From positions 83,131 through 147,130 of the forward strand of contig JAPKYS010000043.1 of NCBI GenBank assembly GCA_026394195.1: a stretch of 64,000 nt of DNA. The letters are read 5' to 3'. Numbering within the stretch: position 1 is the first letter of the stretch; each line of letters begins with the position of its first letter. The DNA is from a bacterium. GTDB taxonomy: Bacteria > Electryoneota > B3-LCP. The translations under genes were made by a program, and so were the position numbers. Positions 4,893 through 41,379 of this stretch are shown in pieces. The notes under the pieces were generated by a model. It was not told where the DNA came from. It worked only from the letters and a program-made list of their open reading frames with translations, and ran no database searches.

Positions 4893-5600
4893 ATGAGTAA
4901 AAAGACGAGCGCCGATCCGAGGAAAGAATTTGAGGAGATGAGGGAAGCGATAACACTTCATTTTCGAGAGTGCTTTAATTATTTGGAAAATTATGATACT
5001 GTTGTAAACATACAGGACAAAGAACGTGAATTGTACCAATTCGCATCTTTCTTTTTTAAAGATCTTCGGAAAGCATTTTGGTGTACTCTTGTTCTTTGGA
5101 TTTATAAATTGACCAAAGATAAATACGTTGGCATGATTCACTTATTGAATTTTGCTGAAGAACACACCGATTTGTTCACTCGAAATGGGACAATTTCACC
5201 TGAATCCATTAAGACTGACAGAAAAACTATTGAAAAAAATCCAGAATTCATTTCGATTATGAATCGGAGACATCATTATTATGGACACTTTAATCCAGAA
5301 TTTGTGAGGCATCCAGAGCTGATGGAAAAAAAGTACCCAATCACCTGGAAGAATCTTACAGCAGCCATAGATGAAGCATGGGAAATTCTTCAAAAATATT
5401 CTTGCTCGTATGATGGTGGATGTTCTGCGAAATATTGGTTAAGAGATGGTTCCGGTGGTATAGGTAAGGTTATCGACTTGATCAGGAATCAGAGTTTGAA
5501 GATTGAGCGCGAGCAACAGGAAGAGTACAATCGTTTGTTTGGTGAAACAGGAATTAATCCAAAGGGCAACCATGGCAGCCGTCAAAGAGATTCTGATTGA
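4893..5600 (+). CDS. Hypothetical protein in a low-GC islet, with a HEPN-like R-x6-H motif (NRRHHYYGH). Candidate abortive-infection or defence effector.
   Basis: The ATG at 4893 lies in frame within the long ORF that starts at 4455. GC is about 33%, against roughly 55-60% in the flanks. It sits immediately upstream of a toxin-antitoxin pair. Confidence 0.5.
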   Translation: MSKKTSADPRKEFEEMREAITLHFRECFNYLENYDTVVNIQDKERELYQFASFFFKDLRKAFWCTLVLWIYKLTKDKYVGMIHLLNFAEEHTDLFTRNGTISPESIKTDRKTIEKNPEFISIMNRRHHYYGHFNPEFVRHPELMEKKYPITWKNLTAAIDEAWEILQKYSCSYDGGCSAKYWLRDGSGGIGKVIDLIRNQSLKIEREQQEEYNRLFGETGINPKGNHGSRQRDSD

Positions 5601-6366: not shown

Positions 6367-8352
6367 ATGCCTGACATAGAAAAAATCGAACCGATCGAAA
6401 CCTACGACGCGCAAAAGATCACCGTCTTAAAAGGTCTGGAAGCGGTGCGCAAACGCCCGGCCATGTACATCGGCGACGTTTCGGCGCGCGGGTTGCACCA
6501 CCTGGTCTACGAAGTGGTGGATAACGCCGTGGATGAAGCCATGGCGGGATTCTGCACGGAGATCGAGGTGAACCTCCACCCGGACGATTCCGCAGAAGTC
6601 TGGGATAACGGCCGCGGCATCCCCATCGACAAACATAAGACCGAAAAAGTGTCAGCCCTGCAGGTGGTCATGACCATGCTGCACGCCGGCGGCAAATTCG
6701 ACAAGCAGTCGTACAAGGTTTCCGGAGGACTGCACGGTGTCGGCGTCTCGGTGGTGAACGCGCTTTCGCTCTGGTGCTGGGCGGAAGTTTGCCGCGAAGA
6801 AAAACTCTACCGTCAGAGCTATCAGTGCGGTCACGCTGACGGACCGGTTCAGGAGACCGGCAAATGCCGCCAGCGCGGCACCCGGGTGCGCTTTTTCCCC
6901 GATCCGGAAATCTTTAAGGAGACTCGATTCAGCTTCGATACGGTCTCCAACCGACTTCGGGAATTAGCCTTCTTGAACAGCGGACTCAAGATTACCGCCC
7001 GCGACCTGCGAGCCGAAGAAGCAAGGGAAAGGGAGTTCCAATACAAGGGTGGACTATCCGAGTTCGTGGCTTATCTCGATGAAACCCGCATTGCGCTGCA
7101 TCAGAGTCCGATCATCATCACCGGCGAGAAAGAGGGTGTCGTCGTTGATATCGCCATGGAGTACAACGATTCCTACCAGGAAAACATCTTCACCTACGTC
7201 AATAATATCTACACGTTAGAAGGCGGTACGCACCTTTCTGGCTTCAAAGCAGCGCTGACCCGGACTTTAAACTATTGGGCGCTGAAAAACAATATCTTCA
7301 AGACTGATAAGTTCACACTATCAGGTGAAGACACGCGCGAAGGGCTTACGGCAGTCCTTTCCATCAAAGTGCCGGAACCGCAGTTTGAAGGGCAGACCAA
7401 GACCCGTCTGGGCAATTCCGAAGTCAAAGGCATCGTCGAATCTATCGTCAATGATGGTTTGACCGAATACCTGGAAGAACACCCAGGTTACGCCCGCCGC
7501 ATCCTTGATAAGTGCACGTCATCTGCGCGAGCCCGTGAAGCTGCTCGCAAAGCCAAGGACCTGGTGCGTCGCAAAGGCGCCTTGGAATCAGGTTCCCTGC
7601 CCGGCAAGCTGGCGGATTGTTCCATCAACGACCCGGAACACTGCGAACTATTCATCGTGGAAGGCGATTCCGCAGGAGGATCCGCCAAGCAAGGGCGCGA
7701 CCGCCGCTTCCAGGCAATTCTGCCGCTGCGAGGTAAAATCCTCAACGTCGAAAAGGCTCGCCCCGATAAAATCCTGTCCAACGAAGAAATCCGCACCCTC
7801 ATTCAGGCGATCGGCACGGGTATCGGCGGGGACGAACCGCTTGAGGGCAGCGACGGTGAAGCAGACCCGACCGCCGGAGAAAACGGCAATTTCAACCTGA
7901 CCAAACTGCGCTATGGCAAGATCATCATCATGACCGATGCCGACGTCGACGGGGCTCACATCCGCACGCTGCTGCTGACCTTCTTCTTCCGGCACATGAA
8001 GCAGTTGGTGGAAACCGGCCACATCTTCATTGCGCAGCCGCCCCTGTACCGCATCACCAAGAGCAAGAGCGATCATTACGCCTACGATGAAAAAGAGATG
8101 AACGAGGTACTCAAGCGGATCGGCGGCATGCAGGGCGCTCACATGCAGCGTTATAAGGGCTTGGGCGAGATGAACCCCGATCAGCTCTGGACTACCACCA
8201 TGGACCCTGAACGCCGCACTGTGCTCAGGGTTGAATTGGAAGACGCCGCCACCGCCGACAAGATGTTCGAAACCCTGATGGGAGATCACGTGGACAAAAG
8301 ACGCGCCTTCATCGAAGAAAATGCTCGTTACGTCCGCAATCTGGACATTTAA
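6367..8352 (+). CDS. gyrB: DNA gyrase subunit B
   Basis: GHKL ATPase N-terminus (LEAVRKRPAMYIGD..GLHHLVYEVVDNAVDE), a TOPRIM region (EGDSAGGSAKQGRD) and the C-terminal GyrB tail. Confidence 0.95.
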   Translation: MPDIEKIEPIETYDAQKITVLKGLEAVRKRPAMYIGDVSARGLHHLVYEVVDNAVDEAMAGFCTEIEVNLHPDDSAEVWDNGRGIPIDKHKTEKVSALQVVMTMLHAGGKFDKQSYKVSGGLHGVGVSVVNALSLWCWAEVCREEKLYRQSYQCGHADGPVQETGKCRQRGTRVRFFPDPEIFKETRFSFDTVSNRLRELAFLNSGLKITARDLRAEEAREREFQYKGGLSEFVAYLDETRIALHQSPIIITGEKEGVVVDIAMEYNDSYQENIFTYVNNIYTLEGGTHLSGFKAALTRTLNYWALKNNIFKTDKFTLSGEDTREGLTAVLSIKVPEPQFEGQTKTRLGNSEVKGIVESIVNDGLTEYLEEHPGYARRILDKCTSSARAREAARKAKDLVRRKGALESGSLPGKLADCSINDPEHCELFIVEGDSAGGSAKQGRDRRFQAILPLRGKILNVEKARPDKILSNEEIRTLIQAIGTGIGGDEPLEGSDGEADPTAGENGNFNLTKLRYGKIIIMTDADVDGAHIRTLLLTFFFRHMKQLVETGHIFIAQPPLYRITKSKSDHYAYDEKEMNEVLKRIGGMQGAHMQRYKGLGEMNPDQLWTTTMDPERRTVLRVELEDAATADKMFETLMGDHVDKRRAFIEENARYVRNLDI

Positions 8353-8557: not shown

Positions 8558-9328
8558 ATGTCCATACTGCTATTTGTGGATGAAAGCCGCTGGGAGTCGC
8601 CGGGCAAGCCGGATTATTACGCCACCATGTCCGGCATCGCCGTCGAAGAGCTCTCCTATGTGGATTTCTGCCGGAGGCTGATGAAGCTTAAGGGTCGCTT
8701 CTTCAAGCGTCCCGGTATCGACGAGTACGCTCTGCAGGGCCGCGCCCTGTTGTGCAACCGCGCGCTGACCAGCTACCGCAAAGTCGAATTCGTACAGGAG
8801 CTTTTCAGCCTGTGCCGTTTGCAAAAGGTTGTCGCCTTTTCCACCACCCGCAAGTGTTTGCCTTCCCGGGACGAACGAACACCCAGCGAACTCCCCACCG
8901 CATTCCCTATGGCTGCCATTTCACCCACCGATAAATACAGCGGGGAGGTCTGCTCGATTCTGCTGGCATACCTGGTCGAACGAGTCAACACCTTCATGCT
9001 GGAACGGCATCCCGGCCAAGTTGCCAAGATAATCTTCAAGACCGAAGAAGCCAACCACGATCGCCTCTTGAGCTCCTGCCTGATGAATTTCATCTTCAAG
9101 ACCTCGTTCGGCAGCGGGTTTCACGGTATTTTGGGGACACCCTTCTTCGCTCCGGCGTCGCATTCGCCCGGTTTGCAGTTGGCGGATCTGTTCGCTTACA
9201 TCATCAACCAGCACCACGGCGGGCGCAAGGAGATGCGAGATTTCTTCGAAGAGGTGCTGACCATGCAGTTTATTTCTTCGATTGAGCAGGATGAATTTGA
9301 ACTACGGGGGATGAACTTGATCGAATGA
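8558..9328 (+). CDS. DUF3800-family protein
   Basis: N-terminal LLFVDESRW and C-terminal GLQLADLFAYII motifs characteristic of DUF3800. Confidence 0.65.
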   Translation: MSILLFVDESRWESPGKPDYYATMSGIAVEELSYVDFCRRLMKLKGRFFKRPGIDEYALQGRALLCNRALTSYRKVEFVQELFSLCRLQKVVAFSTTRKCLPSRDERTPSELPTAFPMAAISPTDKYSGEVCSILLAYLVERVNTFMLERHPGQVAKIIFKTEEANHDRLLSSCLMNFIFKTSFGSGFHGILGTPFFAPASHSPGLQLADLFAYIINQHHGGRKEMRDFFEEVLTMQFISSIEQDEFELRGMNLIE

Positions 9329-9360
9329 TGCAGATTTGGTGGCACGAGGCACGAGGCACG
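9329..9360. repeat. Tandem heptamer array (GGCACGA x4) immediately after the stop codon
   Basis: Direct reading: GGCACGAGGCACGAGGCACGAGGCACGAG. Confidence 0.9.
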
Positions 9361-9479
9361 AGGCACGAGAATTCCGTAGTCGGGGTCGTCCCTGACCCTG
9401 ACGTTGCTAATTTTTTTAAAGCAATGAATCAAGCACTCGTTGACATCAAGTCGTTGAAATGACTAAAAAAAGCAGACTT

Positions 9480-9625
9480 TTCACCAGGCGCTAAAGCACC
9501 TGGCTACCGGATTCCAAAGCCCCCTCAAAGGGGGCTGGAGCCCCGTTCACGGGGCTTTGTAATAGCGTAGACCCGTCCTTTAGGGCGGGGCGAGAGAGGC
9601 TGCATTCTCCCCGGGGAGACGGCCT
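9480..9625. other. Cluster of GC-rich hairpins (CCCCC-loop-GGGGG type) ending in a T-tract. Candidate small structured RNA or REP-like element.
   Basis: Several perfect inverted repeats were read directly (AGCCCCCTCAAAGGGGGCT, GCCCCGTTCACGGGGC, TCTCCCCGGGGAGA) followed by TTTTTTT. Confidence 0.25.
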
Positions 9626-9833
9626 TTTTTTCATTTCAGGCCATAAAAAAGCGGGGAAGCAGTCCCAAGTAAACTCAGGAAAAAGCACGATCTATCAGGT
9701 CATGCCCGCCTCCCCGAAGGTAACAGTACAATATATACGTAAAATTTTCATTTGTCAAGTTTTTTTACTGCGATAGCGGCGATAGAATACAGTTTGAGAC
9801 CAAGCGCGCTCTTTTTGCCTGAAAAATAAAAAC

Positions 9834-9862
9834 TTGCAATTCGGGATTTTTTGATTATATTA
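9834..9862 (+). promoter_or_regulatory. Sigma70-like promoter (TTGCAA-N16/17-TATATT) upstream of the 10029 gene
   Basis: Near-consensus -35 and -10 hexamers with canonical spacing. Confidence 0.45.
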
Positions 9863-10028
9863 GAGAGTGTTGAAAAATAATAAAAATAGAGTCATTGCGA
9901 GCGTAGCGAAGCAATCTCGTAGCTTGGTTCTACCGGATTGCTTCGGGACTTCGTCCCTCGCAATGACGCAAAAAGTATTTTTCAACGCTCTCATATTAAG
10001 ATATCTTAATAACCTTCTGGAGCCACCC

Positions 10029-11693: not shown

Positions 11694-11858
11694 ATGATGG
11701 AGGGACACGCTCCGCCGTGTCCTTTAACGGATATAAAACAGGACGGGACGGAGCCCGTCCCTCCAAATATGAAATGCCTAAATCATTCTAACATACCGGC
11801 ACGATCGCCCCGGAAATTAAAGCGCGATCAAAACAATATTATCCAGTGGAGGAAGAGT

Positions 11859-13157
11859 ATGAAACGCTTTGTTCAATTTCTGCTGATGTCAGCGCTGCTG
11901 GCAATGACGTTTATCTCTAACGCAAGAGCCTGGGACTACTTTCGCATTCCCGGCGGAGTAGCTCTGAAAACCATCGTCGTAGATAACGGCGGGGTAAAAG
12001 GGATGTGGATTCCGGAAAAACAAGCCGGAATGTATTGGGTGGATTGGGATGATGCAAACGACCATTTCGAACCCGTATCGAGTCTGGGTGAATTCGATGC
12101 CTACTACTGCTGGTTCATGGGCGGAGACGCCTGCAACTTCGGCACCTCAGAAAACCCGGTTCTTCGCTCTCTGGCTGCCACCTATCAAGGCGTACATCGT
12201 TATAAATATGAAACCTCTGCATGGGAACCCTACAACGCCCCGAACAATATCGTAAAGAATAACAACTGGCGCTGGCATGATGCAGTCTTCTATTCTGACC
12301 CGCGAGAACAGCAGCCCTCTTTCGCTATAGATAACTACATCGTTTCTGCCGTGCAGCCCTGGACTGACGGAAATGATTGGCGAATGGGGCTCTACTTAAT
12401 CCAAAACAATGAATTACCGGATAAAGAAGATGCACCAATCAGTGGCCCCTTGAGCCATAATTACAATTTCATTCACAGATCACTGGATACCCAAGCAACA
12501 GTTTTCTACACCTGGTACAATGACATAGACTTCAGCGCTTCGACTCAATCCGGTGAATTCCAGCGGTTAACCCTTACGGCTACAGGACAGGCGATTACTC
12601 CTACTTTAATCCCTGATGACTCGGGGTTGCCGGACTACTACTATAAGGTCTGCAATTTCTTCCAGGCCATCGAGAGCGGAACCTACTACCAGTGGATTAT
12701 GGTGGATACTCAAGATTATATAGGGACTTCCGATCCTATCCTTTACTATCGCGTTTACAATAACGGCTGGGAGGATTGGGAAGAGATGTTCCACGTGAGG
12801 AGCGTCACTGGATTTAGCCATTATGCCGGTATGGGTATGGCGGTTCATAAGAGGACTGTCGCCACCGTGGACTACTTCTACGTGTATCTTAACGTGGATT
12901 TCGAAGGCTTGGCGCTGATAAAATACGATCTAAACAATCCTCAAAACCCCTATTCCAAAAAGTGGTTGAATAATGATGGCACAAATTACATCCGCAAATG
13001 GAATGGTCGCAGCCTGAACATGGTACCGAATGGGTGGTTAAATAACTCCAGTCATGACATTCTGATCGTCGGCACAGCGCACGCAGACGTGTCTGTGGTG
13101 GAGGTGGATAATGAAACTGAGACGCCCCAGGTCGTGAGTATTGATAAATTGAATTAA
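11859..13157 (+). CDS. Hypothetical secreted protein
   Basis: Signal peptide MKRFVQFLLMSALLAMTFISNARA begins at an ATG preceded by GGAGGAAGAG. No recognisable family. Confidence 0.55.
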   Translation: MKRFVQFLLMSALLAMTFISNARAWDYFRIPGGVALKTIVVDNGGVKGMWIPEKQAGMYWVDWDDANDHFEPVSSLGEFDAYYCWFMGGDACNFGTSENPVLRSLAATYQGVHRYKYETSAWEPYNAPNNIVKNNNWRWHDAVFYSDPREQQPSFAIDNYIVSAVQPWTDGNDWRMGLYLIQNNELPDKEDAPISGPLSHNYNFIHRSLDTQATVFYTWYNDIDFSASTQSGEFQRLTLTATGQAITPTLIPDDSGLPDYYYKVCNFFQAIESGTYYQWIMVDTQDYIGTSDPILYYRVYNNGWEDWEEMFHVRSVTGFSHYAGMGMAVHKRTVATVDYFYVYLNVDFEGLALIKYDLNNPQNPYSKKWLNNDGTNYIRKWNGRSLNMVPNGWLNNSSHDILIVGTAHADVSVVEVDNETETPQVVSIDKLN

Positions 13158-13479
13158 ATATTTCATTCCCTTGTTTATATCTATGTTGGTTATGCGTCAG
13201 GTCTCCGCTGCGCTATAGAACTGCCGCAACGATATTCCCAGCCTTGTCGGATTCCGGACGCAGGCTAAAGCCTTTGCCGGAATGACAAGGTTCTCTTAAC
13301 TGACTGCTGATTGCGCTTATACTTGGTTACTTGTTCACTTGTTCACCTGGTTACTATTTCAAGGGCGTCCCTACCGGTCGCCCTTGGTGTTTTCAGCACC
13401 ATTCATGTGATATTTTTAACTTGTTTTTCCGCTAAATTTTCTTTATATTCTTAGACTTCTAAAAAACCTCGAGGAACAA

Positions 13480-15315: not shown

Positions 15316-16533
15316 ATGAGCATCAGTATACTGGCCAGGTCCATCCAGGAATCACCGACGTTAGCCTTAAACGAGCAGGCCAGACTCCTGCGCGAGAAAG
15401 GCGAGGCGGTGGTCCATCTGGGAGCGGGTGAACCGAAAAACAAAGCTCCCATCAACGCGATCTTGACGTCGGTCGCCAAGCTGAATGCCGGCGACATCAA
15501 GTACACTCCCACCGATGGCATCCCCTCTTTGAAGAAAGCCATCATCCGCTACACCGAAGAGAACTACGACCGTCTGCCGGCACCCGAGCAGGTGATGGTG
15601 TCGGGCGGAGCCAAACAATCACTGTGGAACTTGCTCTTCACCATCTTAAATCCTCAGGATGAAGTCGTTATCATCGCACCGTATTGGGTGAGCTACCCGG
15701 AAATGATCAAGATGTGTTACGGCATCCCGGTGGTGGTCACTCCGGAAGACGGCGGCTTCTACCCCCGCATGAAAGAGATCGAGCAGGCAGTTAGTTCGTA
15801 CACCAAAGCGATCATCATCAACAGCCCCAACAACCCGTCCGGAGTGATGTACCCTGAAAGCTTCATCGCAGAAATCGTCGAATACTGCGAGAAAAAGGGC
15901 ATCTACCTGATCATGGACGACATCTACCACAAGCTGATTTTCGACGGAAAAACCGTCATTACGCCCTACAAGTACACCAGCAAGAATATCGAAGAAACCA
16001 AGGTGATCACCATCAACGGGATCTCGAAACTGTACGGCATGACCGGTTTCCGCATCGGCTGGCTCGTCGCTCCCAAGCAATTAGTTGATATCATGATCAA
16101 TGTCCAGGCGCAGACCACTTCCTGCACCTCGCTGGTCTTGCAGGCAGCCGCCGAAGGCGCATTGACCGGCTTGCAGAGCGTCGTCGAAACTCTGCGGCTG
16201 ACTCTGGAAAACAATCGCAACGTCATGCTGGCGGAGTTGAAAACTTTCAATGGGATTCGCGTCACCAAACCGGATGGAACCTATTACTGCCTGCCTGATT
16301 TCAGCGCTTATGGAAAAGACTCGGTAAAGTTGTCCAAAATGTTGCTGCAAAAGGCTCTCGTGGTGACGGTACCCGGCAAGGAATTCGGTATGGAAGGCCA
16401 TCTGCGGCTGAGCTATGCGACCACGGTCAAGGACATCAAGGAGGGCATTGAGCGCATGCGCTGGGCATTGGATCCGAATTCGCCGAACGAAATATACATC
16501 GGTGAAAGAAAACTGGTGAGGGACTGGCTATGA
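15316..16533 (+). CDS. Class I/II pyridoxal-phosphate aminotransferase (aspartate/aromatic type)
   Basis: 405 aa. Fold-type I PLP aminotransferase motifs including the SKLYGMTGFRIGW lysine region. Confidence 0.88.
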   Translation: MSISILARSIQESPTLALNEQARLLREKGEAVVHLGAGEPKNKAPINAILTSVAKLNAGDIKYTPTDGIPSLKKAIIRYTEENYDRLPAPEQVMVSGGAKQSLWNLLFTILNPQDEVVIIAPYWVSYPEMIKMCYGIPVVVTPEDGGFYPRMKEIEQAVSSYTKAIIINSPNNPSGVMYPESFIAEIVEYCEKKGIYLIMDDIYHKLIFDGKTVITPYKYTSKNIEETKVITINGISKLYGMTGFRIGWLVAPKQLVDIMINVQAQTTSCTSLVLQAAAEGALTGLQSVVETLRLTLENNRNVMLAELKTFNGIRVTKPDGTYYCLPDFSAYGKDSVKLSKMLLQKALVVTVPGKEFGMEGHLRLSYATTVKDIKEGIERMRWALDPNSPNEIYIGERKLVRDWL

Positions 16534-18170
16534 ACAATCTCTTAAATATAAAAACTCCCTGCGAAGGTCAAGCTCTGGCGCAAAAAGCCTTCTACGGAAT
16601 CGAAAATCACGGGCTCGCCAACCTGCGCCAGGTCTATTGGAACCTGCCCACCGAAGCGCTCTATGAAGAGATCGCCTTCCGCGGCGAAGCGAAAATCACC
16701 CATATGGGACCGATCCTTGCCTGGACTGGAAAACACACGGCTCGTTCCGCCAACGACAAATTCGTGGTCAAAGAAGGCACCACCGAAGACAAAATCTGGT
16801 GGGGCGAGTACAATCGTCCTTTCAGCGAAGACAAGTTCAACGACCTGTTCAACCGCATGCAGGGCTACCTGCAGGGGCGCGACGTCTTTGTGCAGGACTG
16901 CTATGCCGGAGCTGATCCTAATTACCGGATGCCCATCCGCGTCATCACCGAATTAGCCTGGCACAGTCACTTCGCTCGCAACATGTTCATCCCCACGAAA
17001 ACGCTGAACGAGATGCAGCGACACGTCCCGGATTTCACGATCCTGGCGCTTCCCGGGTTCAAAGGAATTCCGCAGATTGACGGTACGGCTTCCAACACTT
17101 TCATCGTGTTGAATTTCGCCGCAAAGATGTGCATCATCGGGACGACGGCCTACGCCGGTGAAATCAAGAAGTCTGTCTTCTCGATTCTGAATTACCTGCT
17201 GCCGTTGCAGGGCGTTATGCCCATGCACTGCTCGGCCAATATCGGCCCGAAAGGCGACACCGCTCTCTTCTTCGGTCTTTCCGGAACCGGCAAAACGACC
17301 CTGTCGGCTGACCCGGGCCGCGGGCTGATCGGCGACGATGAACACGGCTGGTCCGATGACGGCATCTACAACTTTGAAGCGGGCTGCTACGCCAAGGTGA
17401 TCGCCCTATCCCCCTCTGCAGAACCGCAAATCTACGCCTGCACCCAGAAGTTCGGCACTATCCTGGAAAACGTCCCCTTTGATCCGGTCACCCGCAGAAT
17501 CGATCTGGACGATGAATCCATCACCGAAAATACCCGCTGTTCCTACCCGATGGAATACATCGACAATGCCGTGCCGGAAAAGATGGGCGGACATCCCAAG
17601 AACATCATTCTGCTGACCTGCGACGCCTCGGGCGTCATGCCCCCCATCGCCAAACTGACCCCGGATCAGGCCCTCTACCAATTCATCTCGGGGTATACCT
17701 CCAAGATCGCCGGCACCGAAGTCGGTCTGGGCAAGGAACCGGAAATGACCTTCAGTACCTGCTTCGGAGGTCCCTTCATGGTGCACCATCCTTACTTCTA
17801 TGGCGATCTGCTGAAACGCAAGATCCTGAAGCACGATGCTCACTGCTGGCTGGTCAACACCGGCTGGGTGGGAGGCAAGTACGGCATCGGCAAGCGCATC
17901 AGCATCAAGTACACCCGCGCTCTGCTGAACGCGGCGTTGGACGGCAAGCTGCTCAAGGTGGAATACAAGCAGGACCCGGTCTTCGGTTTCTCCGTGCCCA
18001 TGTCCTGCCCGGACGTGCCGGACAGCGTCCTGAACCCGGCTGAAGCCTGGTCCGACAAGAACGCCTACATGAAGAGCTACAAGGAACTGGCGTCCCGCTA
18101 CATCGAGAACTTCAAGAAGTTCGAAGACGGCTGCCCGCCGGAAGTCAAAGCGGCAGGGCCGAAGAGGTAA
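16530..18170 (+). CDS. pckA: Phosphoenolpyruvate carboxykinase (ATP)
   Basis: Kinase-1a/Walker motif FFGLSGTGKTTLS and PEPCK-ATP signature regions. 4-nt overlap with the upstream aminotransferase. Confidence 0.93.
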   Translation: MNNLLNIKTPCEGQALAQKAFYGIENHGLANLRQVYWNLPTEALYEEIAFRGEAKITHMGPILAWTGKHTARSANDKFVVKEGTTEDKIWWGEYNRPFSEDKFNDLFNRMQGYLQGRDVFVQDCYAGADPNYRMPIRVITELAWHSHFARNMFIPTKTLNEMQRHVPDFTILALPGFKGIPQIDGTASNTFIVLNFAAKMCIIGTTAYAGEIKKSVFSILNYLLPLQGVMPMHCSANIGPKGDTALFFGLSGTGKTTLSADPGRGLIGDDEHGWSDDGIYNFEAGCYAKVIALSPSAEPQIYACTQKFGTILENVPFDPVTRRIDLDDESITENTRCSYPMEYIDNAVPEKMGGHPKNIILLTCDASGVMPPIAKLTPDQALYQFISGYTSKIAGTEVGLGKEPEMTFSTCFGGPFMVHHPYFYGDLLKRKILKHDAHCWLVNTGWVGGKYGIGKRISIKYTRALLNAALDGKLLKVEYKQDPVFGFSVPMSCPDVPDSVLNPAEAWSDKNAYMKSYKELASRYIENFKKFEDGCPPEVKAAGPKR

Positions 18171-18195
18171 GGCAAAAGGAAAAAGGTAAAAGTAA

Positions 18196-18228
18196 AAAGG
18201 GGCGATCCGGGTGGGTCGCCCTTTTTGA
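18196..18228 (+). terminator. Rho-independent terminator (GGGGCGATCCGGGTGGGTCGCCC + T-tract)
   Basis: A GC stem followed by TTTTTG. The same stem sequence recurs after other genes. Confidence 0.6.
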
Positions 18229-18291: not shown

Positions 18292-18364
18292 AATATAGGG
18301 AGGCACAAACTTCAAACAAAACCTGATTTGAGTAAACATCTATAATCAAATGTGGAGACCCGCC

Positions 18365-20410
18365 ATGAAGAAGAGCTGGATACTCGCAACGGCAGCCGTG
18401 ATCATAATCGCTGGCGTTTTTACCCCTTACACCAAGGTTCACGCCATTGTCGATCTGGGTTGGGCGATCCACCAACCGGGCCCAGCCCATGGTGATGATT
18501 CCCCTGTTGGCGTCGAAGTGGATGCTTCAGGAAATGTCTACGTAGTAGGACATAGTTACCACGATGAAATCACCGGATATGACTATCTGACTATCAAATA
18601 CACACCTGATGGGGCAGTATTGTGGAGATCGTATTATGATAGCCCATCGGAAAATTCTTGGGATGTTCCTATGGATTTTATCCTCAATGATCAAGGGAAT
18701 GTTTACATCACGGGAGAGTGCATCGGGGACGAAAATAATCTTGATTTTGCTACCGTCTGCTTCAATTCGCAGGGACGGCAGTTGTGGGAAGCCATCTACG
18801 CCGGTCCAAACCAATTCAATGATGAGGCGCAAGCTCTCGCGCTGGACGCGGCCGGTAACCTTTACGTTACGGGTCGCTCGTACACTTCCGTAGATAATGC
18901 GGATTTCGCCACTATCAAGTACAATTCGCTGGGCGAACAACAGTGGGTGGCGCTCTACAACGGTCCGGGTAACCGCACGGACTATCCTGTAGATATTGCG
19001 GTCGATGGAACCGGAAATGTATATGTCACAGGAAATAGCGATTCTGATCCATCGCCGCGTTTCAATTACGATTTCGCCACGATTAAATATAATTCAATGG
19101 GCGTACAGCAATGGGTAGTATACCACAACGGTCCCTACAATGGGAATGATTACCCGGTGGCGTTAGCCCTGGATGGTGACGCCAACGTTTATGTGACCGG
19201 CCAGAGCCAGAATGCATCGAACTCAGACTGCATAACCGTGAAATACAACTCGAATGGGGTTCAACAGTGGGTACACGGGTACACCGAGACTCAGGTTGGT
19301 TATCCCATACCCTTTTCGATGAAGTTGGATCGTCAGAATAACGTCGTCATTGCCGGTTGCTACTCGGGAGAAACGGGAAGCAAATACTTCACTCTGAAGC
19401 TGAATAGCGCCGGGGTGCAGCAGTGGGCCAGACTATACCAGAGTAGTGGCACCTGGGGGGAACGAGCCAACGCAGTCGCGGTTGACCGCGACCTGAACGT
19501 TTATGTAACGGGTGAGAGTCACACTTCTTCGTGGTTTCCCACTTGCACTACATTAAAATATGACCAGGCAGGTACTTTGAAATGGACTGCTTACTATGAC
19601 TCGGATCTTGACGCTCTGAAGAGTGGGGTGGATTTAGCCATCGATCGACACGGAAACGTCCTCGTCGCTGCCCAATTTATGTTCATGGAGCAGGCAGATT
19701 ACGATTTTCTCACGCTTAAGTACCACCAAGTTCAGGGTGACGTGGCTGTAGGAATGATTCCGACAGTTTCTCCAATTCAGATCCCCCCAACTGGAGGCAG
19801 TTTTAGCTATCATCTCACCACGGTCAACGGCGTTCGCGACAGTTTGCCGGTTGATCTGTGGTGGCAGATCAACTTTCCAGGCTTATATCCGCGAGTAGTT
19901 AACATAGGATTACAATCACGGGATCTCCCCTTGGACACTTGCGTCATCGTTCGTACCCAGAACGTCTCCGCCAACGTTCCGGCAGGGACATACCAGTATG
20001 CTGCCTATATTGGTGATTTCCCCGAAATAGTTTGGGCGTCCGATACTCTGACCTTTGAGAAACAATCAGACAGTTCCGACCCGTGGGTAACAACTCAAGA
20101 TGAGAGTTTTTCAGGTCCATTTGAAGAGACAGAGCCTGCCACTCCTACGCAGTTCGAACTTTTATGCGTTTTCCCCAACCCCTTCAACCCCAGCACCACC
20201 ATCAGCTACGCGTTGCCGACAGCGGGTCTGGTGAATCTATCCGTCTACGACATTTCGGGGAAGAAGGTGGTGGAGCTGGTGAATGGAACCAGAGACGCAG
20301 GAAAGCAGGAGGTCACTTTCGACGGTTCAAATCTCCCATCGGGAATTTATTTCTGCCGCCTGCAGGCGGGGGTGTGCACCGCGGTGGAGAAGATGGTGCT
20401 GCTGAAATAG
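18365..20410 (+). CDS. SBBP beta-propeller repeat protein with a T9SS C-terminal sorting domain
   Basis: Repeated NVYVTG.S....D..TIKYN..G...W...Y.G units. C-terminus ends ...GIYFCRLQAG..TAVEKMVLLK. Confidence 0.8.
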   Translation: MKKSWILATAAVIIIAGVFTPYTKVHAIVDLGWAIHQPGPAHGDDSPVGVEVDASGNVYVVGHSYHDEITGYDYLTIKYTPDGAVLWRSYYDSPSENSWDVPMDFILNDQGNVYITGECIGDENNLDFATVCFNSQGRQLWEAIYAGPNQFNDEAQALALDAAGNLYVTGRSYTSVDNADFATIKYNSLGEQQWVALYNGPGNRTDYPVDIAVDGTGNVYVTGNSDSDPSPRFNYDFATIKYNSMGVQQWVVYHNGPYNGNDYPVALALDGDANVYVTGQSQNASNSDCITVKYNSNGVQQWVHGYTETQVGYPIPFSMKLDRQNNVVIAGCYSGETGSKYFTLKLNSAGVQQWARLYQSSGTWGERANAVAVDRDLNVYVTGESHTSSWFPTCTTLKYDQAGTLKWTAYYDSDLDALKSGVDLAIDRHGNVLVAAQFMFMEQADYDFLTLKYHQVQGDVAVGMIPTVSPIQIPPTGGSFSYHLTTVNGVRDSLPVDLWWQINFPGLYPRVVNIGLQSRDLPLDTCVIVRTQNVSANVPAGTYQYAAYIGDFPEIVWASDTLTFEKQSDSSDPWVTTQDESFSGPFEETEPATPTQFELLCVFPNPFNPSTTISYALPTAGLVNLSVYDISGKKVVELVNGTRDAGKQEVTFDGSNLPSGIYFCRLQAGVCTAVEKMVLLK

Positions 20411-20478
20411 TCTTCAACTTTGAACTTTTAACTTTCAACTTGTAACTTCAAAAGGGGCGCAGAGTTTGCACCCTTTTT
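20411..20478 (+). repeat. Conserved post-stop element (AACTT-type heptamer array CAACTTTG-AACTTTT-AACTTTC-AACTTGT-AACTTCA) plus terminator hairpin; copy 1
   Basis: Near-identical copies at 22269-22340 and 22630-22700. Confidence 0.8.
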
Positions 20479-20526: not shown

Positions 20527-20591
20527 ACGCTTGCCGAAAGGTTGAAATCCAAGTTTTTTAAAACAACAACATAATTGTGGAGGGACGTCTG

Positions 20592-22268
20592 ATGAGCATC
20601 TCAATAATACGCACCGGGGCAGCTGTAATCGTTGTTACCTTGCTGACTGTGCTTCCCGCCTTCAGTCAGGTTACCCAGGAATGGGTCCGGTACTATGATG
20701 GATCCGGAAACCAGAACGATCAAGCTTCCGCGATGGTTGTGGACCCGATGGGGAACGTCATCGTGACCGGTCAGTCCCAGGGCGAGTGGCTGACGATAAA
20801 GTACGATTCGGATGGTAATACACTGTGGTCGATACGTGAAGACGAAGGAGAATGGCCGACCGCGCTGGCGGTCGACGAAATCGGCGACATCTACCTTACC
20901 GGTTATAAATATACCGGATCGGCGATAGAATTATTCAACATTATTACCATAAAGTACAATGCTGACGGAGATCTGCTTTGGGGCGCCTCATACAATGGAC
21001 CCAGCAATCTGGACGATTTGGCCACCGCGATCTGTCTGGATGATTCGGGCTACATTTACGTCACAGGCTCAACAGTCTATTCCTTCGGTACCCAGGACCT
21101 GATTGTAATAAAGTACGACTCAACAGGAGGTTATTCCTCCACCTGGCCAAATACTGGCTTGGGAATTGGAGTTAGAATCTATAATGGGGGCGGCAGCAAC
21201 GGTTACGATTGCGGGCAGTCAATAGCCGTGGATCACGCCGGAAACGTGTATGTAACCGGAGAATCAGCGTCGGGAGGGTCAGGATCGAATATGGACTATG
21301 CGACCCTAAAGTACAGCGCCAGCGGAAACCAGCTCTGGGCAGCGCGTTATGATGGTCCGGTCAACGGAACTGATACGCCGGTTGGCTTGGTTCTGGACGA
21401 TCTGGGTAACGTTTACGTAGCCGGTACCTCCCTGGGCTTCATGAACCAGGGTAATTATCGTAATGACTACGCAACCGTCAAGTATGACGGCGACGGCAAT
21501 CAGATGTGGGCAGCGCGCTACGATGGTCCGATACAATATGAAGATTACTGCCACGACATTGCCATTGATGCTGCCGCCAATATTTATGTGACCGGATGCG
21601 CAGCCAATTCAAGTTATGATATAGCTACAGTAAAGTATAATTCCAATGGAACAGAATTATGGGTTGCCATCTACGACGGTTCTAACCATAATGTAGATCA
21701 AGGCAACACTTTAATGGTTGATCAGGCTGAGAACGTCTACGTGGCAGGTCAAGTTTCAGCCGGCTCATGCGGCTGGGATATTGCGACGGTCAAATATGAT
21801 GCGGCTGGGACTCAAATTTGGGCCATCGAATTCAATGCCGCTGATAGCCTGGGTGACAGACCCGTAGCGATAGCCCTGGATTCAGAAGATAACGTATATG
21901 TGCATGGGACTTCCGGAACAGACGGTGCCTGGGATAACTATGTTACGATCAAATATAACCAGGTTAATGGGATTGAACCAGGGTGGTCTTCGGGTAATCG
22001 ACCTATCAGCTATAAGCTGAATTCCAATTTCCCCAACCCCTTCAACCCCACCACCACGATTAGCTATTCTCTACCGACAACGAGTTTGGTGAATCTGTCA
22101 ATTTATGATGTGTCAGGGAAAAAGGTGGCTGAGTTGGTAAATGGAATGAGAGCAGCAGGAGCCAAGAAGATCACCTTCGACGGCTCTAACCTCACCTCCG
22201 GCATCTATTTCTGCCGATTGCAGGCAGGGGAGTACTCAGCAGTGCAGAAGATGATTCTCCTGAAATAG
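20592..22268 (+). CDS. SBBP beta-propeller repeat protein with a T9SS C-terminal sorting domain
   Basis: Same repeat architecture as the previous gene. C-terminus ends ...GIYFCRLQAGEYSAVQKMILLK. The ATG at 20592 is preceded by GGAGGGA. Confidence 0.8.
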   Translation: MSISIIRTGAAVIVVTLLTVLPAFSQVTQEWVRYYDGSGNQNDQASAMVVDPMGNVIVTGQSQGEWLTIKYDSDGNTLWSIREDEGEWPTALAVDEIGDIYLTGYKYTGSAIELFNIITIKYNADGDLLWGASYNGPSNLDDLATAICLDDSGYIYVTGSTVYSFGTQDLIVIKYDSTGGYSSTWPNTGLGIGVRIYNGGGSNGYDCGQSIAVDHAGNVYVTGESASGGSGSNMDYATLKYSASGNQLWAARYDGPVNGTDTPVGLVLDDLGNVYVAGTSLGFMNQGNYRNDYATVKYDGDGNQMWAARYDGPIQYEDYCHDIAIDAAANIYVTGCAANSSYDIATVKYNSNGTELWVAIYDGSNHNVDQGNTLMVDQAENVYVAGQVSAGSCGWDIATVKYDAAGTQIWAIEFNAADSLGDRPVAIALDSEDNVYVHGTSGTDGAWDNYVTIKYNQVNGIEPGWSSGNRPISYKLNSNFPNPFNPTTTISYSLPTTSLVNLSIYDVSGKKVAELVNGMRAAGAKKITFDGSNLTSGIYFCRLQAGEYSAVQKMILLK

Positions 22269-22340
22269 TCTTCAACTTTGAACTTTTAACATTCAACCTG
22301 TAACTTCAAAAGGGGCGATCCGGGTGGGTTGCCCTTTTTG
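22269..22340 (+). repeat. Conserved post-stop AACTT-heptamer element plus terminator; copy 2
   Basis: TCAACTTTGAACTTTTAACATTCAACCTGTAACTTCAAAAGGGGCGATCCGGGTGGGTTGCCC. Confidence 0.8.
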
Positions 22341-22493
22341 TATGCAATTTTCTGCACGAAGCTGAAACCCGCGGCATTGAGGTTGTTACAGGAGCAACTG
22401 TTTCGATATGGAGCCTGTCCAATAATACGGGAGGGAAGCAATCAACCCTTATCTGTATCATTTGGATGCAGGCAATTCAAAGGAAAGTGAACC

Positions 22494-22649
22494 ATGAAAT
22501 CGTACCGAACTTTCGCAGTAGCAATCGTTACAGTTTTGATAACCTTCACGATTGCGCAGGCTCAGTGGACCCAGGCCTGGTGCCCCACAGCTCTGCTATG
22601 GGTTCGCTTAATCCCCCTTGCCTCCCCCTCCCCAACTTTCAACTTTTAA
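22494..22649 (+). pseudogene. Remnant of a secreted-protein gene: a signal peptide plus about 25 codons, running straight into copy 3 of the post-stop element
   Basis: MKSYRTFAVAIVTVLITFTIAQAQ... then the frame ends inside CAACTTTCAACTTTTAACATTCAACTTATAAC. This is consistent with an internal deletion. Confidence 0.55.
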
Positions 22650-22700
22650 CATTCAACTTATAACTTTAAATTACAACGGGCGGTCAGATGACCGCCCGTC
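22630..22700 (+). repeat. Post-stop AACTT-heptamer element, copy 3 (diverged), plus a terminator hairpin (GGGCGGTCagatGACCGCCC)
   Basis: Direct reading. Confidence 0.7.
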
Positions 22701-22830
22701 TGCGTTGGTGCGTTTGATCGCAGACCGTACCTACAGCCCCAAAGGAAACCATTTCGGCAGTCCTATTCCAAGGCTGAAATAATACGGGTGCGGTGGGTCT
22801 GCCGAAGGTTCTTTGACATAGGAGGTTAAA

Positions 22831-23859
22831 TTGGCGACGCTTTACAAGCGACGAAGTAGGGACGGTACGAACACTTGGTATGTCCTCTATCAGGAGGGCA
22901 ACAAGTCCCGCATGCGATCAACCGGTACGAGCGATAAAACTCTCGCTCATGAGGTGATGAAAAAGATCAAGGAGGATGCGGTGAGAAGGAGTCGCGGATT
23001 GGAACCGATAGAAACCGTGGAGTCGATTCTTCTATCTGAGTTTATTGCTGTGTATTTGACCGAACGGAAGAAGGATGGCAAAATGCCCCGGACTATCGAA
23101 ACCGATTCTTACGCCTTGGGTAGGTTACTCAACCGCATTGGTGACTGTTCTCTAATTTCAATCACCAAGGAATCAGCCCGAAAGTACAAAGGCTACAAGC
23201 TCGAAAACGTTAAACCAGTTTCAGCAAGTATTGAGCTACGGTCAATCCGGGCAGCCTTCAACTGGGCTTTAGAAAAGCCTGGGACTAAATACCTATATAG
23301 CAACCCCTTCAAGCAGAAGGGATTAATCCCAACCGTACCAGGTAGAACAATCCCACCGATTTTCTCACCCGAGGAAAAGGCGAGGTTTCTCGAGTCAATT
23401 GAAGATGAGAATCACAAACGGCTCTTCAAGTTCTTCTTGCTTACGGGTTGCCGGAGAGCTGAAGCGGTGAATTTGAAATGGGCTGACATCGATTTTGAGC
23501 AGAAGCAACTCACCTTTCGCCGAACAAAAACGAAAAGAGATCGGGCTATTCCGATCAACCTCGAACTAATGCAGATACTGATCGCACTTGATCGTACTCA
23601 GGCGAAACCTTTCAGTTTTGGCTCAGATTGGATTTCGCACTTGTTCGAAAGGTATCTGCGCCGGGCAAAGATTGATAGACCGATGTCCCTACATGGTCTA
23701 AGACACACTTGTGCTTCCGACATGGTTCGAGCCGGGGTCCATCTAACCAAGATCCAGAAGTTCCTCGGACACACTTCAGTTAAAACGACAGAGATTTACA
23801 CTCACGTTTTACCTGAAGATTTGCGGGAAGCTGCGGAGGTACTTTCCTGTGTCGGTTAG
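22831..23859 (+). CDS. Tyrosine-type site-specific recombinase/integrase
   Basis: C-terminal catalytic region HGLRHTCASDMVRAGVHL...LGHTSVKTTEIYTHV. Adjacent to tRNA genes. Confidence 0.85.
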   Translation: MATLYKRRSRDGTNTWYVLYQEGNKSRMRSTGTSDKTLAHEVMKKIKEDAVRRSRGLEPIETVESILLSEFIAVYLTERKKDGKMPRTIETDSYALGRLLNRIGDCSLISITKESARKYKGYKLENVKPVSASIELRSIRAAFNWALEKPGTKYLYSNPFKQKGLIPTVPGRTIPPIFSPEEKARFLESIEDENHKRLFKFFLLTGCRRAEAVNLKWADIDFEQKQLTFRRTKTKRDRAIPINLELMQILIALDRTQAKPFSFGSDWISHLFERYLRRAKIDRPMSLHGLRHTCASDMVRAGVHLTKIQKFLGHTSVKTTEIYTHVLPEDLREAAEVLSCVG

Positions 23860-24160: not shown

Positions 24161-24354
24161 AAGTAATTACGAATGATGAATGATGAGTTATGAGTAGAAA
24201 ACGTCGGAGTGATCCGAACTTATCAAGACGACACCCTGGTCCAAATCCGTTAGAGGGTGAGCCGAAGCAAACGGCGACGCTTGATCTATCCAAAGTTAGC
24301 TTAATAATATACAACTTAAACAACCCTTTGTCAAGTACTTGCCGCAGAATCCTC

Positions 24355-36030: not shown

Positions 36031-36597
36031 ATGAGCGAATTCCAACCGATGACCTCCCGCCGCCTGACGCTGCGGCGCCTGCTGCCTTCCGACGGCAGGG
36101 CGGTGTACGCTTACCGTTCCCGCCCCGAAGAGGCGCAGTTCCAAAGCTGGGTTCCCAAGTCCGCTCACGAAGCCGAGGACTTCATCCACAGGATTATTTC
36201 GCTGGAACCCGGCATCCCCGGCACCTGGTTTCAGTTAGCGATAACTCTGAAAGATTCCGGCGAACTGATCGGCGACTGCGGGCTCTATTTCCCCGATTAC
36301 ATGCCCAAACAGGCGGAATTGGGCATCACGGTGTCGTCGCAGTACTGGAAGAAGGGGTACGCCATCGAAACGCTGACGGCGGCGCTGGATTACCTCTTTG
36401 GCGAGATGAAGCTGCACCGGGTCTACGCTTCCACCGACCCCAACAACCACCCCGCCATCCGGCTGCTGGAATACCTGGGCTTGCGCAAGGAAGCTCACTT
36501 CCGCCAGAGCCTCTGGTTTAAGAACGCCTGGGCCGACGACCTGGTCTACGCCACCCTGAGCGGCGAATGGGAGAAGAGACGGAGGAGGTTGGGGTAG
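36031..36597 (+). CDS. GNAT-family N-acetyltransferase (RimJ/RimL-like)
   Basis: 188 aa with the GNAT fold pattern ...WKKGYAIETL.... Confidence 0.8.
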   Translation: MSEFQPMTSRRLTLRRLLPSDGRAVYAYRSRPEEAQFQSWVPKSAHEAEDFIHRIISLEPGIPGTWFQLAITLKDSGELIGDCGLYFPDYMPKQAELGITVSSQYWKKGYAIETLTAALDYLFGEMKLHRVYASTDPNNHPAIRLLEYLGLRKEAHFRQSLWFKNAWADDLVYATLSGEWEKRRRRLG

Positions 36598-36599
36598 GG

Positions 36600-36650
36600 G
36601 GAAATAATTGGAGATTGGAGATTGAAGATTGAAGATTGAAGAATTAAGAG
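36600..36650. repeat. Tandem heptamer array (GATTGGA x2, GATTGAA x3, GAATTAA) directly after the stop codon
   Basis: Direct reading. Confidence 0.9.
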
Positions 36651-36900: not shown

Positions 36901-37076
36901 AACGCAGTTGACGTGTGACCTGACGCTGGAAAAACTGACCAACCCACAGCAAGCTGGGAGGAAGCGAGGGATTTCCTGGAACCCCTCTTGAAATTTTGAA
37001 GAAAGGGGTTGATTTTGGGAGGGAAGAGGAGTATAATTACTTTGCAGAATGCAGATAAAATAAAATGAGGTGTTAA

Positions 37077-40270: not shown

Positions 40271-40938
40271 ATCAATCACTAATCTATCTGATGGATGAAA
40301 TTTGCGCAGGTGTAGAAATCTACTTTACGGGTCGCTTAGGGAGTCAGTATTTAAAAACTGCCTTTCTTCTATGTGATGATTATTCAGAGCTTATCTCAAA
40401 ACTTTTCCTACTTATCGACAATCCGAAATGGACCGAGATGAAAGCCAATTCTAATTTTAAAAGTTACCCAGATATAATGGCTGAGGTAGAAACAACTACT
40501 TCAAAAAATAATCCTAATAAATTGGAAAAAGTAAGAGAATTGATTAGCGCAATGAAAAAACGTAGAAAGCGCCGTAATGACTTTTTTCATTCTACGAGTC
40601 TACTTGATTTGAGCGTAACGAATAGAAATTGTGTCGAAGCCTTTTGTGATCTTCTAGAATATGGGGATATTTTGTTTGGGGTAAATTGGCGCACGACGTT
40701 AGAAGGTTCTAGAAATCTATCGACCTTTGATGTATTGCTCCGGTTAGAAAGGCATTCATTTTCTGATCCATCAATCACTCAAAAAATGAATCGTGTTCTG
40801 CAGAATTGGCCTAGAAATATTAAAAATGCGAAGCGGGCAGGTGTCCATTTGGCAGAATATCCAGAAGACCTTCATCTAAGACTGTGTGTAACCTGGGGAG
40901 GAAACGAACTTAGAGATAAATTAAAAACTTTACTCTGA
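40267..40938 (+). CDS. Small low-GC protein with a HEPN-like R-x4-H motif (RRNDFFHS), translationally coupled to the S gene
   Basis: ATGA overlap with the S-gene stop. GC is far below the neighbouring genes. No family assigned. Confidence 0.45.
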   Translation: MNQSLIYLMDEICAGVEIYFTGRLGSQYLKTAFLLCDDYSELISKLFLLIDNPKWTEMKANSNFKSYPDIMAEVETTTSKNNPNKLEKVRELISAMKKRRKRRNDFFHSTSLLDLSVTNRNCVEAFCDLLEYGDILFGVNWRTTLEGSRNLSTFDVLLRLERHSFSDPSITQKMNRVLQNWPRNIKNAKRAGVHLAEYPEDLHLRLCVTWGGNELRDKLKTLL

Positions 40939-41024
40939 CCAAATCCCCGAGCCAACCCACCCCTCTACTGTAGATTCACCCGTCGGGGTCAGGGGCGACC
41001 CCGACTATGTTTATCGCTCTCAAA

Positions 41025-41065
41025 GTGGAGAATGGAGAATGAAGAGTGACGAATGACGAATTGAA
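41025..41065. repeat. Tandem heptamer array (GAGAATG x2, AAGAGTG, ACGAATG, ACGAATT)
   Basis: Direct reading. Confidence 0.85.
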
Positions 41066-41094
41066 GAAAAAAAACGACCCTTACGCGGTTTTTT

Positions 41095-41150
41095 CATCAG
41101 CGTAATCAGTGTCATCAGCGGTTTCAGCGGTTCAGACTATTTTCTGGATT
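41095..41150. repeat. Dispersed intergenic repeat (GCGTAATCAG ... TTCAGACWATTTTC), with a second copy at 45728-45770
   Basis: Shared blocks read in both locations. Confidence 0.55.
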
Positions 41151-41342: not shown

Positions 41343-41379
41343 ATGGGAATCACTCAAACCCGATCAAACCGAGGAGCTC

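Follow-up and report, generated by a model that had tools for sequence, protein, structure and literature searches.

The oldest example of tandem heptanucleotides in bacterial genomes is reportedly that of the cyanobacterial short tandemly repeated repetitive (STRR) sequences, which Mazel et al. are said to have described in 1990 as repeats of non-coding DNA present in many copies per genome. In 2007, a genome survey reported that heptanucleotides are the most abundant class of long simple-sequence repeats (LSSRs, with units of 5–11 nt) in many prokaryotes, with a scattered phylogenetic distribution over free-living bacteria with large genomes from several phyla, and proposed that they arise when the polymerase slips over a stretch of about 7 nt (Mrazek 2007, as summarized in PMC4679880 and PMC4692102). 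Why bacteria gather 7-nt repeats, and whether these have any role, has been a question since these two descriptions. Here, we analysed the arrays of tandem 7-nt units carried by a 64-kb stretch of bacterial DNA (assembly GCA_026394195.1, contig JAPKYS010000043.1, positions 83,131–147,130), hereafter the window, of which 14%, or 9.2 kb, is intergenic. An earlier note on this DNA had observed that locus-specific heptamer arrays follow stop codons and precede hairpin terminators, and had found the pattern unassignable to any known class of element. It can be assigned: over-represented intergenic heptanucleotide repeats are already in the literature (PMC4679880, PMC4692102), and the window arrays are intergenic heptanucleotide simple-sequence repeats (SSRs) of the LSSR/STRR type and not a new class of element, because they have the defining features of that class, i.e., tandem 7-nt units, an excess of period 7, a non-coding location and a placement at the ends of open reading frames (ORFs). 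What the window adds is (i) a case outside cyanobacteria and proteobacteria, in an uncultured Bacteroidota-like lineage, (ii) the many units found in one genome and (iii) a quantified placement between stop codon and terminator.

The window arrays share with the LSSRs summarized in these two papers a dominant non-coding period of tandem 7-nt units, a bias towards intergenic regions and slippage as the proposed cause; however, in the description of the LSSRs given there, a position after the stop codon and before the terminator is not a defining feature. In Xanthomonas and Nostoc, intergenic arrays of GGGAATC/GGGGAYT, typically of four units, lie near ORF ends, are rare between divergent genes and differ in length at the same loci of related species; neither a function nor a functional class of adjacent genes was identified (Rehm 2015, PMC4692102). 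The window arrays resemble them in having ~4 units, in their proximity to ORF ends and in the lack of a functional class among the adjoining genes; depletion from divergent spacers and length changes between relatives are features of the related loci compared with the window below. However, the Xanthomonas/Nostoc repeats are built from one G-rich unit genome-wide and form G-quadruplexes, whereas the window units vary by locus and none of the window arrays has the four G-runs that a G-quadruplex requires. TAACTGA repeats occur in marine Beggiatoaceae, in some Cyanobacteria and in some Bacteroidetes, the latter also having other heptamer direct repeats (MacGregor 2015, PMC4679880). They too are short intergenic heptamer arrays (2–6 copies) that are missing at the same loci in close relatives, but they use a single unit, mostly just upstream of start codons and in forward orientation, whereas the window units are varied and lie downstream of stop codons. 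The STRR sequences are likewise tandem heptanucleotides of non-coding DNA; their units are reportedly fixed (CCCCAGT, TTGGTCA, CAACAGT) and restricted to heterocystous cyanobacteria, whereas the window has other units and belongs to another taxon. Finally, the SSRs and variable-number tandem repeats (VNTRs) of contingency loci in host-adapted pathogens have units of 1–5 nt (some of 7), lie in promoters or 5′ coding regions and mediate on/off switching. Whole-unit copy-number change by slippage is a feature of these loci and, probably, of the window arrays; in contrast, the window arrays lie 3′ of genes, where gain or loss of a unit cannot switch a frame or a promoter. Phase-variation contingency loci were accordingly rejected as an identity, the arrays coming after stop codons and before hairpins, which are terminators in most cases, and not lying in promoters or 5′ coding regions, as were clustered regularly interspaced short palindromic repeats (CRISPR), which have repeats of ~24–48 nt with unique spacers, as compared to the contiguous 7-nt units of the window.

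Period-7 arrays at gene 3′ ends of the window

Arrays were called by Tandem Repeats Finder and by a lag-p self-match scan, which agree on the main points. At a cut-off score of at least 8, the lag-7 scan identified nine arrays in the window, all nine intergenic and none within a gene. By comparison, 200 dinucleotide shuffles of the window intergenic DNA gave a mean of 0.21 period-7 arrays and a maximum of two, and each of the other periods from 4 to 12 was represented by only 0–2 intergenic arrays. Tandem Repeats Finder returned period 7 at nine loci, with the units arranged head-to-tail. The arrays described in the earlier note are therefore real and far above chance. Their units (GGCACGA, AAGGNAA, AACTTNN, GAATGAT, GATTGRA, GGAGAAT, GCTGGTT and ATTCAGC) differ from locus to locus: about 10 independent arrays, with at least nine different units, lie inside 37 kb. 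The median number of copies per array is 4.4, i.e., about 4–5 units.

At eight window genes, the array starts −1 to 12 nt from the stop codon. The genes that precede arrays, named by Pfam, encode a DUF3800 protein, PEPCK, three SBBP beta-propeller proteins, an M6 peptidase, a GNAT acetyltransferase and, on the minus strand, MutS2. Four of them, the three SBBP genes and the M6 peptidase gene, bear C-terminal sorting domains of the type IX secretion system (T9SS), and these predicted domains place the window organism in the Fibrobacterota-Chlorobiota-Bacteroidota (FCB) group. The 3′ location is clearest in the spacer 45630–45920, which has one array at either end, each beside a stop codon: a degenerate GCTGGTT array of 3.9 copies (45632–45658, plus strand) starts 2 nt past the stop codon of an SBBP/T9SS gene (43668–45629), and an ATTCAGC-type array of 3.4 copies (45895–45918, minus strand; GCTGAWT on the plus strand) starts 2 nt past that of MutS2 (45921–48281). 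As this spacer lies between convergent genes and contains only gene 3′ ends, its arrays belong to 3′ ends and not to promoters.

Behind several arrays, five of them at these eight genes, predicted RNA folds show a strong GC hairpin with a U tract, all on the plus strand: after the PEPCK array (18190–18226, an intrinsic terminator), after the first, second and third AACTTNN arrays (20450–20478, 22307–22340 and 22674–22702), after the array of the M6 peptidase gene (43486–43512) and after that of the third SBBP gene (45660–45735, comprising hairpins at 45660–45680 and 45700–45735). A simple terminator scan confirmed these hairpins in part.

Placement and turnover across related loci

The window was compared with 160 PEPCK neighbourhoods from genomes and metagenomes (L001–L160), the pooled set amounting to 2.16 Mb with the window. 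It consists exclusively of PEPCK neighbourhoods, certain lineages supply several of its arrays, and its genes were called crudely, by a greedy choice of the longest ORFs. The full set contained 61 intergenic arrays of period 7, and none of the other periods between 4 and 13 gave more than 11. Once nine duplicate loci had been dropped, 152 non-redundant sequences remained, including the window, of which 26 carried arrays; these sequences are scattered through Bacteroidota, Ignavibacteria, Chloroflexota and other groups. Among the 152 sequences, tandem and convergent spacers had 0.31 and 0.24 arrays per kb, respectively, compared to 0.06 for divergent spacers, which made up only 3 of the 42 array-bearing spacers (9.0 expected, P = 0.012). 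Of the 16 arrays in tandem spacers whose slack was 60 nt or more, 10 started within 13 nt of the upstream stop codon (1.6 expected, P = 8e-6), and only one ended within 13 nt of the next start codon. The excess persisted when both the window and the multi-array locus L108 were left out (5 of 10 stop-adjacent versus 1.3 expected, P = 0.011), which indicates that stop-codon adjacency reaches beyond the window genome.

The succession of array and hairpin terminator, the other half of the earlier description, holds in the window but not in other lineages. No association with hairpins was found across 50 arrays of these lineages: the 50 nt downstream of them are not more strongly folded (median energy −8.0 kcal/mol) than ordinary 3′ flanks (−10.1 kcal/mol). 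In Chloroflexota, many arrays are found within operons, where they fill the space from a stop codon to the following start codon. The pre-terminator position reflects how the window genome ends its transcription units and is not a property of the arrays.

Copy number was compared between close relatives among the pooled loci. L037 and L136 are 99.93% identical over 21.6 kb, and 14 of their 20 differences lie in one compound array, with the loss of a GTGACCA unit and the gain of a CTGATGA unit. L063 and L096 share 90% identity. Their 11.7-kb aligned block has three indels of at least 4 nt, of which two, measuring 7 and 14 nt, fall in arrays; just beyond this block, the two loci differ by 112 nt, i.e., 16 × 7, in the array that follows the PEPCK stop codon. 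At this position (11640–11900 in L063, 11640–11790 in L096), a GGAATGA array faces an inverted TCATTCC array, the two giving a long hairpin of which one arm is longer by 16 units in L063. Comparable inverted heptamer pairs are present in L098, L099 and L112. Among the origins suggested in the earlier note, that of a slippage-prone 3′ motif is the one supported by these comparisons: near-identical relatives, although not strains of the window organism itself, differ within such arrays by whole units, in exact multiples of 7 nt.

On the 3′ side of PEPCK, the window, L063 and L009 have unrelated arrays, and most relatives have no array at all. Nor was an array present in 21 kb of a species with a PEPCK identity of 81%, which is represented in seven metagenomes. 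Because close relatives differ by whole-unit indels, and because arrays at orthologous PEPCK 3′ regions are unrelated or missing, the arrays are fast-evolving, VNTR-like sequences that are gained and lost independently by lineage. The nearest PEPCK sequences are 79–83% identical to that of the window and come from metagenome-assembled genomes (MAGs) labelled Bacteroidota, Ignavibacteriae or Kryptoniota. One further candidate relative of the window organism, P0001 (L162), proved to be an unrelated GC-rich sequence and was discarded.

Protein look-ups gave no exact record for the window PEPCK, the aminotransferase and one SBBP protein, and exact matches for four other window proteins only on Logan contigs of sample SRR20698647. 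A base-by-base alignment of one of these contigs showed 100% identity to the window over 10.6 kb. This short-read contig bears on whether an assembler could have made or distorted the repeats, since one of its ends falls within the array at 36643 and the opposite end lies 38 nt from the array at 24171. It is, however, an independent assembly that agrees with the window up to and into the array; moreover, the arrays are imperfect and unique, and similar ones occur in many unrelated assemblies. An assembly artefact can therefore be given almost no weight.

Slippage, selection and other explanations

The period-7 excess, the intergenic and stop-adjacent placement, the steps of 7n nt between close relatives and the absence of a shared unit are all observed here. 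The explanation that we favour, with a probability of roughly 0.65, is that the arrays are slippage-generated heptanucleotide microsatellites, a filler tolerated in neutral 3′ spacers. A chance 7-nt duplication in non-coding DNA would expand or contract through strand slippage at replication. MutS-type mismatch repair handles loops of up to about 4 nt; loops of 7 nt would evade it, leading to a rapid turnover of the arrays and to their decay by point mutation, hence to imperfect, locus-specific units. Arrays would persist only where a 7-nt indel is harmless, which would rule out genes (by frameshift), promoters and 5′ regions and leave the stretch that begins at the stop codon. In the window genome, this dispensable stretch would end at the hairpin terminator, and the array would make up the whole unstructured spacer of ~30–40 nt. 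Selection on spacer length is possible as a secondary effect.

Several observations weigh against neutral slippage as a full explanation. First, a second strain of the window organism was sought and not found, and both slippage in this particular genome and neutrality are inferences. Second, the preference for 7 nt over 5, 6 or 8 nt is left unaccounted for; a published suggestion is that 7 nt corresponds to the length of DNA held by the polymerase (Mrazek 2007, via PMC4679880 and PMC4692102). Third, save for the one in a tRNA leader at 24171, all scored window arrays have a hairpin downstream (only some of these hairpins being canonical terminators), and the intervals from a terminator to the following promoter contain no array, which pure neutrality does not predict. 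Fourth, by hand counts, the arrays cluster at 9–46 kb, where they occupy ~10 of 17 3′ spacers, compared to ~1 of 20 in the rest of the window plus a 15-kb flank (Fisher P = 0.0007). As this 15 kb flanking the window in the same genome contains no array, the arrays are regionally clustered and not uniform. T9SS-cargo genes with a 3′ spacer carry an array in four of four cases, versus 7 of 19 other genes (P = 0.037). Fifth, the segment from stop codon to terminator stem is 96% identical (47 of 49 positions) between two SBBP paralogs (20408–20459 and 22266–22317), whereas the third codon positions in the last 240 coding nt of both genes are identical at only 48 of 80. As purely neutral DNA should have diverged more, the identity of the SBBP arrays indicates constraint, or short-tract gene conversion, limited to the array. 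Sixth, TGA/TCA is over-represented in array units when lineages are pooled (38 of 83 versus 17.5 expected), the background TGA/TCA bias of intergenic DNA being only 1.10; with one array per lineage, the enrichment is weaker (10.1 of 21 versus 5.4 expected, P about 0.025). CTGA, GTCA, ACTG and GTGA are likewise enriched in the pooled units, whichever the orientation, and the same TGA/TCA-type feature recurs in units known from the literature (TAACTGA, TTGGTCA and CAACAGT).

The observations on hairpins are those on which a selected spacer, or “terminator rheostat”, would rest: the array, as unstructured RNA, would separate the hairpin from the stop codon by ~30 nt or more and thereby prevent the terminating ribosome from interfering with hairpin folding, and gain or loss of a 7-nt unit would tune how much transcription continues into the following gene. 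In E. coli, the efficiency of a terminator is near 0 a few bp past the stop codon, where the ribosome represses it, and is maximal beyond about 30 bp, provided that the preceding sequence is unstructured (PMC4824070). The window arrays have such properties: the stop-to-stem distance of array-bearing genes is ~20–50 nt, the arrays are mostly unpaired in predicted folds (with weak internal pairs in two), and the scored arrays, with the exception already mentioned, precede a hairpin in the direction of transcription. Among the pooled arrays, 21 of 30 have a purine-rich sense strand, and C amounts to only 14% of array bases, a composition that limits pairing with G-rich stems. The near identity of the arrays of the old SBBP paralogs points in the same direction. 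However, the arrays of other lineages show no hairpin excess and many of them fill stop-to-start gaps in operons, window genes without arrays have their terminators 0–55 nt from the stop codon with ordinary sequence between, most PEPCK orthologs are devoid of arrays, and the period of 7 would again be unexplained. A selected spacer, although the main rival of neutral slippage, is in our view unlikely. A broader version, that the arrays are a selected, fast-evolving module of the 3′ untranslated region whose length, in 7-nt steps, sets the distance to the terminator (or to the next ribosome-binding site) and tunes read-through gene by gene, seems quite unlikely; pointers to constraint or targeted copying are the 96% identity of the paralogous arrays, the strict pre-terminator position and the clustering after T9SS and accessory genes. 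If such a module existed, the TGA/TCA bias of units across phyla would reflect a shared mechanistic requirement.

A binding platform at the RNA or DNA level would provide multimeric sites to which a TRAP- or CsrA-like protein, or a small RNA acting on mRNA 3′ ends, would bind. The regular spacing of ~4–5 units per array, the conservation of the array between SBBP paralogs and an apparent constant core with variable positions (AACTTNN, AAGGNAA) are compatible with it, and Nostoc heptamer repeats affected reporter expression, though from a position upstream of genes (bioRxiv 10.1101/2022.06.06.494920). The core was assessed by comparing 34 arrays with simulated perfect arrays that had been mutated at random and passed through identical detection: once this detection bias is included, the core-plus-variable pattern is no stronger than in the simulation (Fisher P = 0.66) and was rejected as a binding site. 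Furthermore, at least nine different units occur in 37 kb, copy number and sequence shift between close relatives, and arrays are found in either orientation and in many phyla. A TRAP/CsrA-like array was rejected as no core is common to the loci, and a single sequence-specific binding factor is excluded because the units differ by locus; the many units in one genome argue against such a factor. The protein-binding array proposed in the earlier note thus finds no support, and we give a binding platform of any kind a very slight chance.

Other sequence-dependent functions were also considered. A heptamer that contains a stop codon would, when repeated, bring stops into every reading frame; such a trap of stop codons in three frames was rejected because the observed counts match those expected from permutation of the unit columns (a sense-strand stop in 22 of 30 arrays versus 21.7 expected; stops in all three frames in 11 versus 10.8) and because TGA and TCA are enriched equally in both orientations. 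G-quadruplexes require four runs of three or more Gs, and GGG runs are absent from 11 of 12 window arrays, the twelfth having one. A Rho utilisation (rut) site, which calls for C-rich, G-poor and unstructured RNA, is not compatible with the composition of the pooled arrays, in which C is the rarest base of the sense strand (A 381, G 287, T 251, C 153). At the gathering threshold, Rfam identified only three tRNAs in the window.

A last explanation makes the arrays by-products of mobility or recombination, i.e., scars or targets of elements resembling repetitive extragenic palindromic (REP) sequences or miniature inverted-repeat transposable elements (MITEs), or of short-tract copying of 3′ modules. 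Small dispersed repeats of cyanobacteria are said to insert into heptamer arrays (a finding attributed to Elhai in 2008). In the window, a REP-like palindrome, GTCGGGGTCAGGGGCGACCCCGAC, is present as two inverted copies (9377–9403 and 40981–41007; arms 93% complementary), each of which adjoins a heptamer array. Moreover, the AACTTNN array occurs three times within 2.3 kb, and the terminators after the unrelated PEPCK and second SBBP genes (18195–18227 and 22308–22340) are 97% identical, a third one (43483–43515) being 70% identical; the first SBBP gene has a different hairpin behind its nearly identical AACTTNN array. Since terminators after unrelated genes are 97% identical, gene conversion of the SBBP array is plausible, and short 3′-end modules seem, from these sequence identities, to have been copied or converted between loci. 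However, copying spreads arrays and does not create a 7-nt tandem structure, most arrays have no adjoining palindrome, the units are unrelated to the palindromes, and the indels between relatives are whole units within arrays and not insertions of elements. The recombination scar suggested in the earlier note is also without support: neither flanking target duplications nor mobile-element ends were seen. A mobile or recombinational origin is accordingly improbable.

Neutral slippage and spacer tuning have different consequences. Tuning, if true, would be a cheap and evolvable setting of terminator read-through; if it is false, the arrays would be neutral markers (VNTRs) useful for strain typing in metagenomes, and a cause of contig breaks in short-read assemblies. 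What the data offer is a simple positional rule, by which arrays begin next to stop codons and, in the window genome, occupy the space up to the terminator.

Individual arrays and neighbouring features of the window

The arrays below are on the plus strand unless stated otherwise. The first array, a perfect (GGCACGA) × 4.1, spans 9341–9369 and not 9329–9360 as initially described; it starts 12 nt past the stop codon (9326–9328) of the DUF3800 gene (8558–9328), and one of the two REP-like copies (9377–9403) lies directly behind it. Convergent with this gene and its array, the minus strand of 9440–9758 has a near-consensus promoter, TTGACA-17-TATATT (9758–9730), followed by ~260 nt with a fold of −116 kcal/mol (z = −4.2 versus shuffles), which ends near a U run at ~9462 and whose longest ORF is 65 aa. 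The predicted fold could be that of an unannotated small RNA or of a cluster of REP-like hairpins; Rfam gave no match in 9300–9900, even at E ≤ 1. Window promoters are in general sigma-70-like, of the TTGACA/TATATT type.

Three arrays are additional to those of the earlier note, those behind the third SBBP gene (45632) and MutS2 (45895) described above and that behind PEPCK (16530–18170): there, AAGGNAA × 4.6 (18169–18200) begins within the TAA stop codon and is unpaired in the predicted fold. A period-8 array, TACTTGGT × 4.5 (13320–13355), had also gone unreported; it lies 163 nt past the stop codon of the gene 11694–13157, with a hairpin (13360–13387) directly after it.

The three AACTTNN arrays are present as had been reported, but they are copies of one array and not independent cases. 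The first, of ~5 units (20413–20448), starts 5 nt past the stop codon of an SBBP/T9SS gene (18350–20410). The second (22274–22304, or 22273–22310 at its widest) is its paralogous copy after another SBBP/T9SS gene (20577–22268), both following paralogous genes in a 290-nt duplication. The third (22633–22667) is at the end of a truncated ORF (22485–22643) that encodes a signal peptide alone and runs into the array. This ORF, which from its sequence looks like a remnant of a third SBBP/T9SS paralog, adjoins a tyrosine integrase gene (22831–23859) and two tRNA genes.

Two of the arrays said to follow stop codons directly are located otherwise. The GAATGAT/GAGTTAT array of ~3 units (24171–24195, no strand assigned) does not follow a stop codon and forms part of a leader, between a minus-strand promoter (24334–24306) and the 5′ end of tRNA-Pro (24159–24085). 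The GGAGAAT/GACGAAT array of ~5 units (41026–41061) starts 88 nt past the stop codon of the gene 40267–40938, the REP-like palindrome at 40981–41007 lying between them. GATTGRA × ~6 (36607–36649) starts 9 nt past the stop codon of the second GNAT gene (36031–36597). The repeat reported at 43450–43478 exists, as KCACGAG × 4 (43447–43478) directly past the stop codon of the M6 peptidase/T9SS gene (41302–43446), but it is degenerate, unreported by Tandem Repeats Finder and has a lag-7 score of only 4.

A dispersed repeat, TTTTTTCATCAGCGTAATCAG...TTCAGACWATTTTC, is found after two terminators, at 41088–41150 and 45733–45790, with an inverted partial copy at 36919–36949, and is possibly a small element of a mobile or regulatory kind. 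At its start, the window has dnaA-dnaN, and yidC, trmE, gidA and gidB are located upstream (L171, 1–9156), so that it is probably next to the replication origin. Neither the dnaA-dnaN housekeeping stretch nor the 46–64 kb part of the window has heptamer arrays, and the 9–46 kb cluster lies among T9SS-cargo and defence-like genes.

Tandem repeats were also seen within coding sequences. The SBBP/T9SS gene 43668–45629 contains 159-nt tandem repeats (44178–45302) that encode SBBP beta-propeller blades and are common to the paralogs at 18.9 and 21.3 kb; they form an ordinary protein repeat that has no relation to the heptamer arrays. In L075, a Bacteroidia MAG, AACTTNN/AAGTTTC arrays (5543–5575 and 7288–7379) are part of an ORF: they occur where it encodes the signal peptide and where it encodes a C-terminal, coiled-coil-like stretch, in which three 7-nt units encode a 7-residue repeat.

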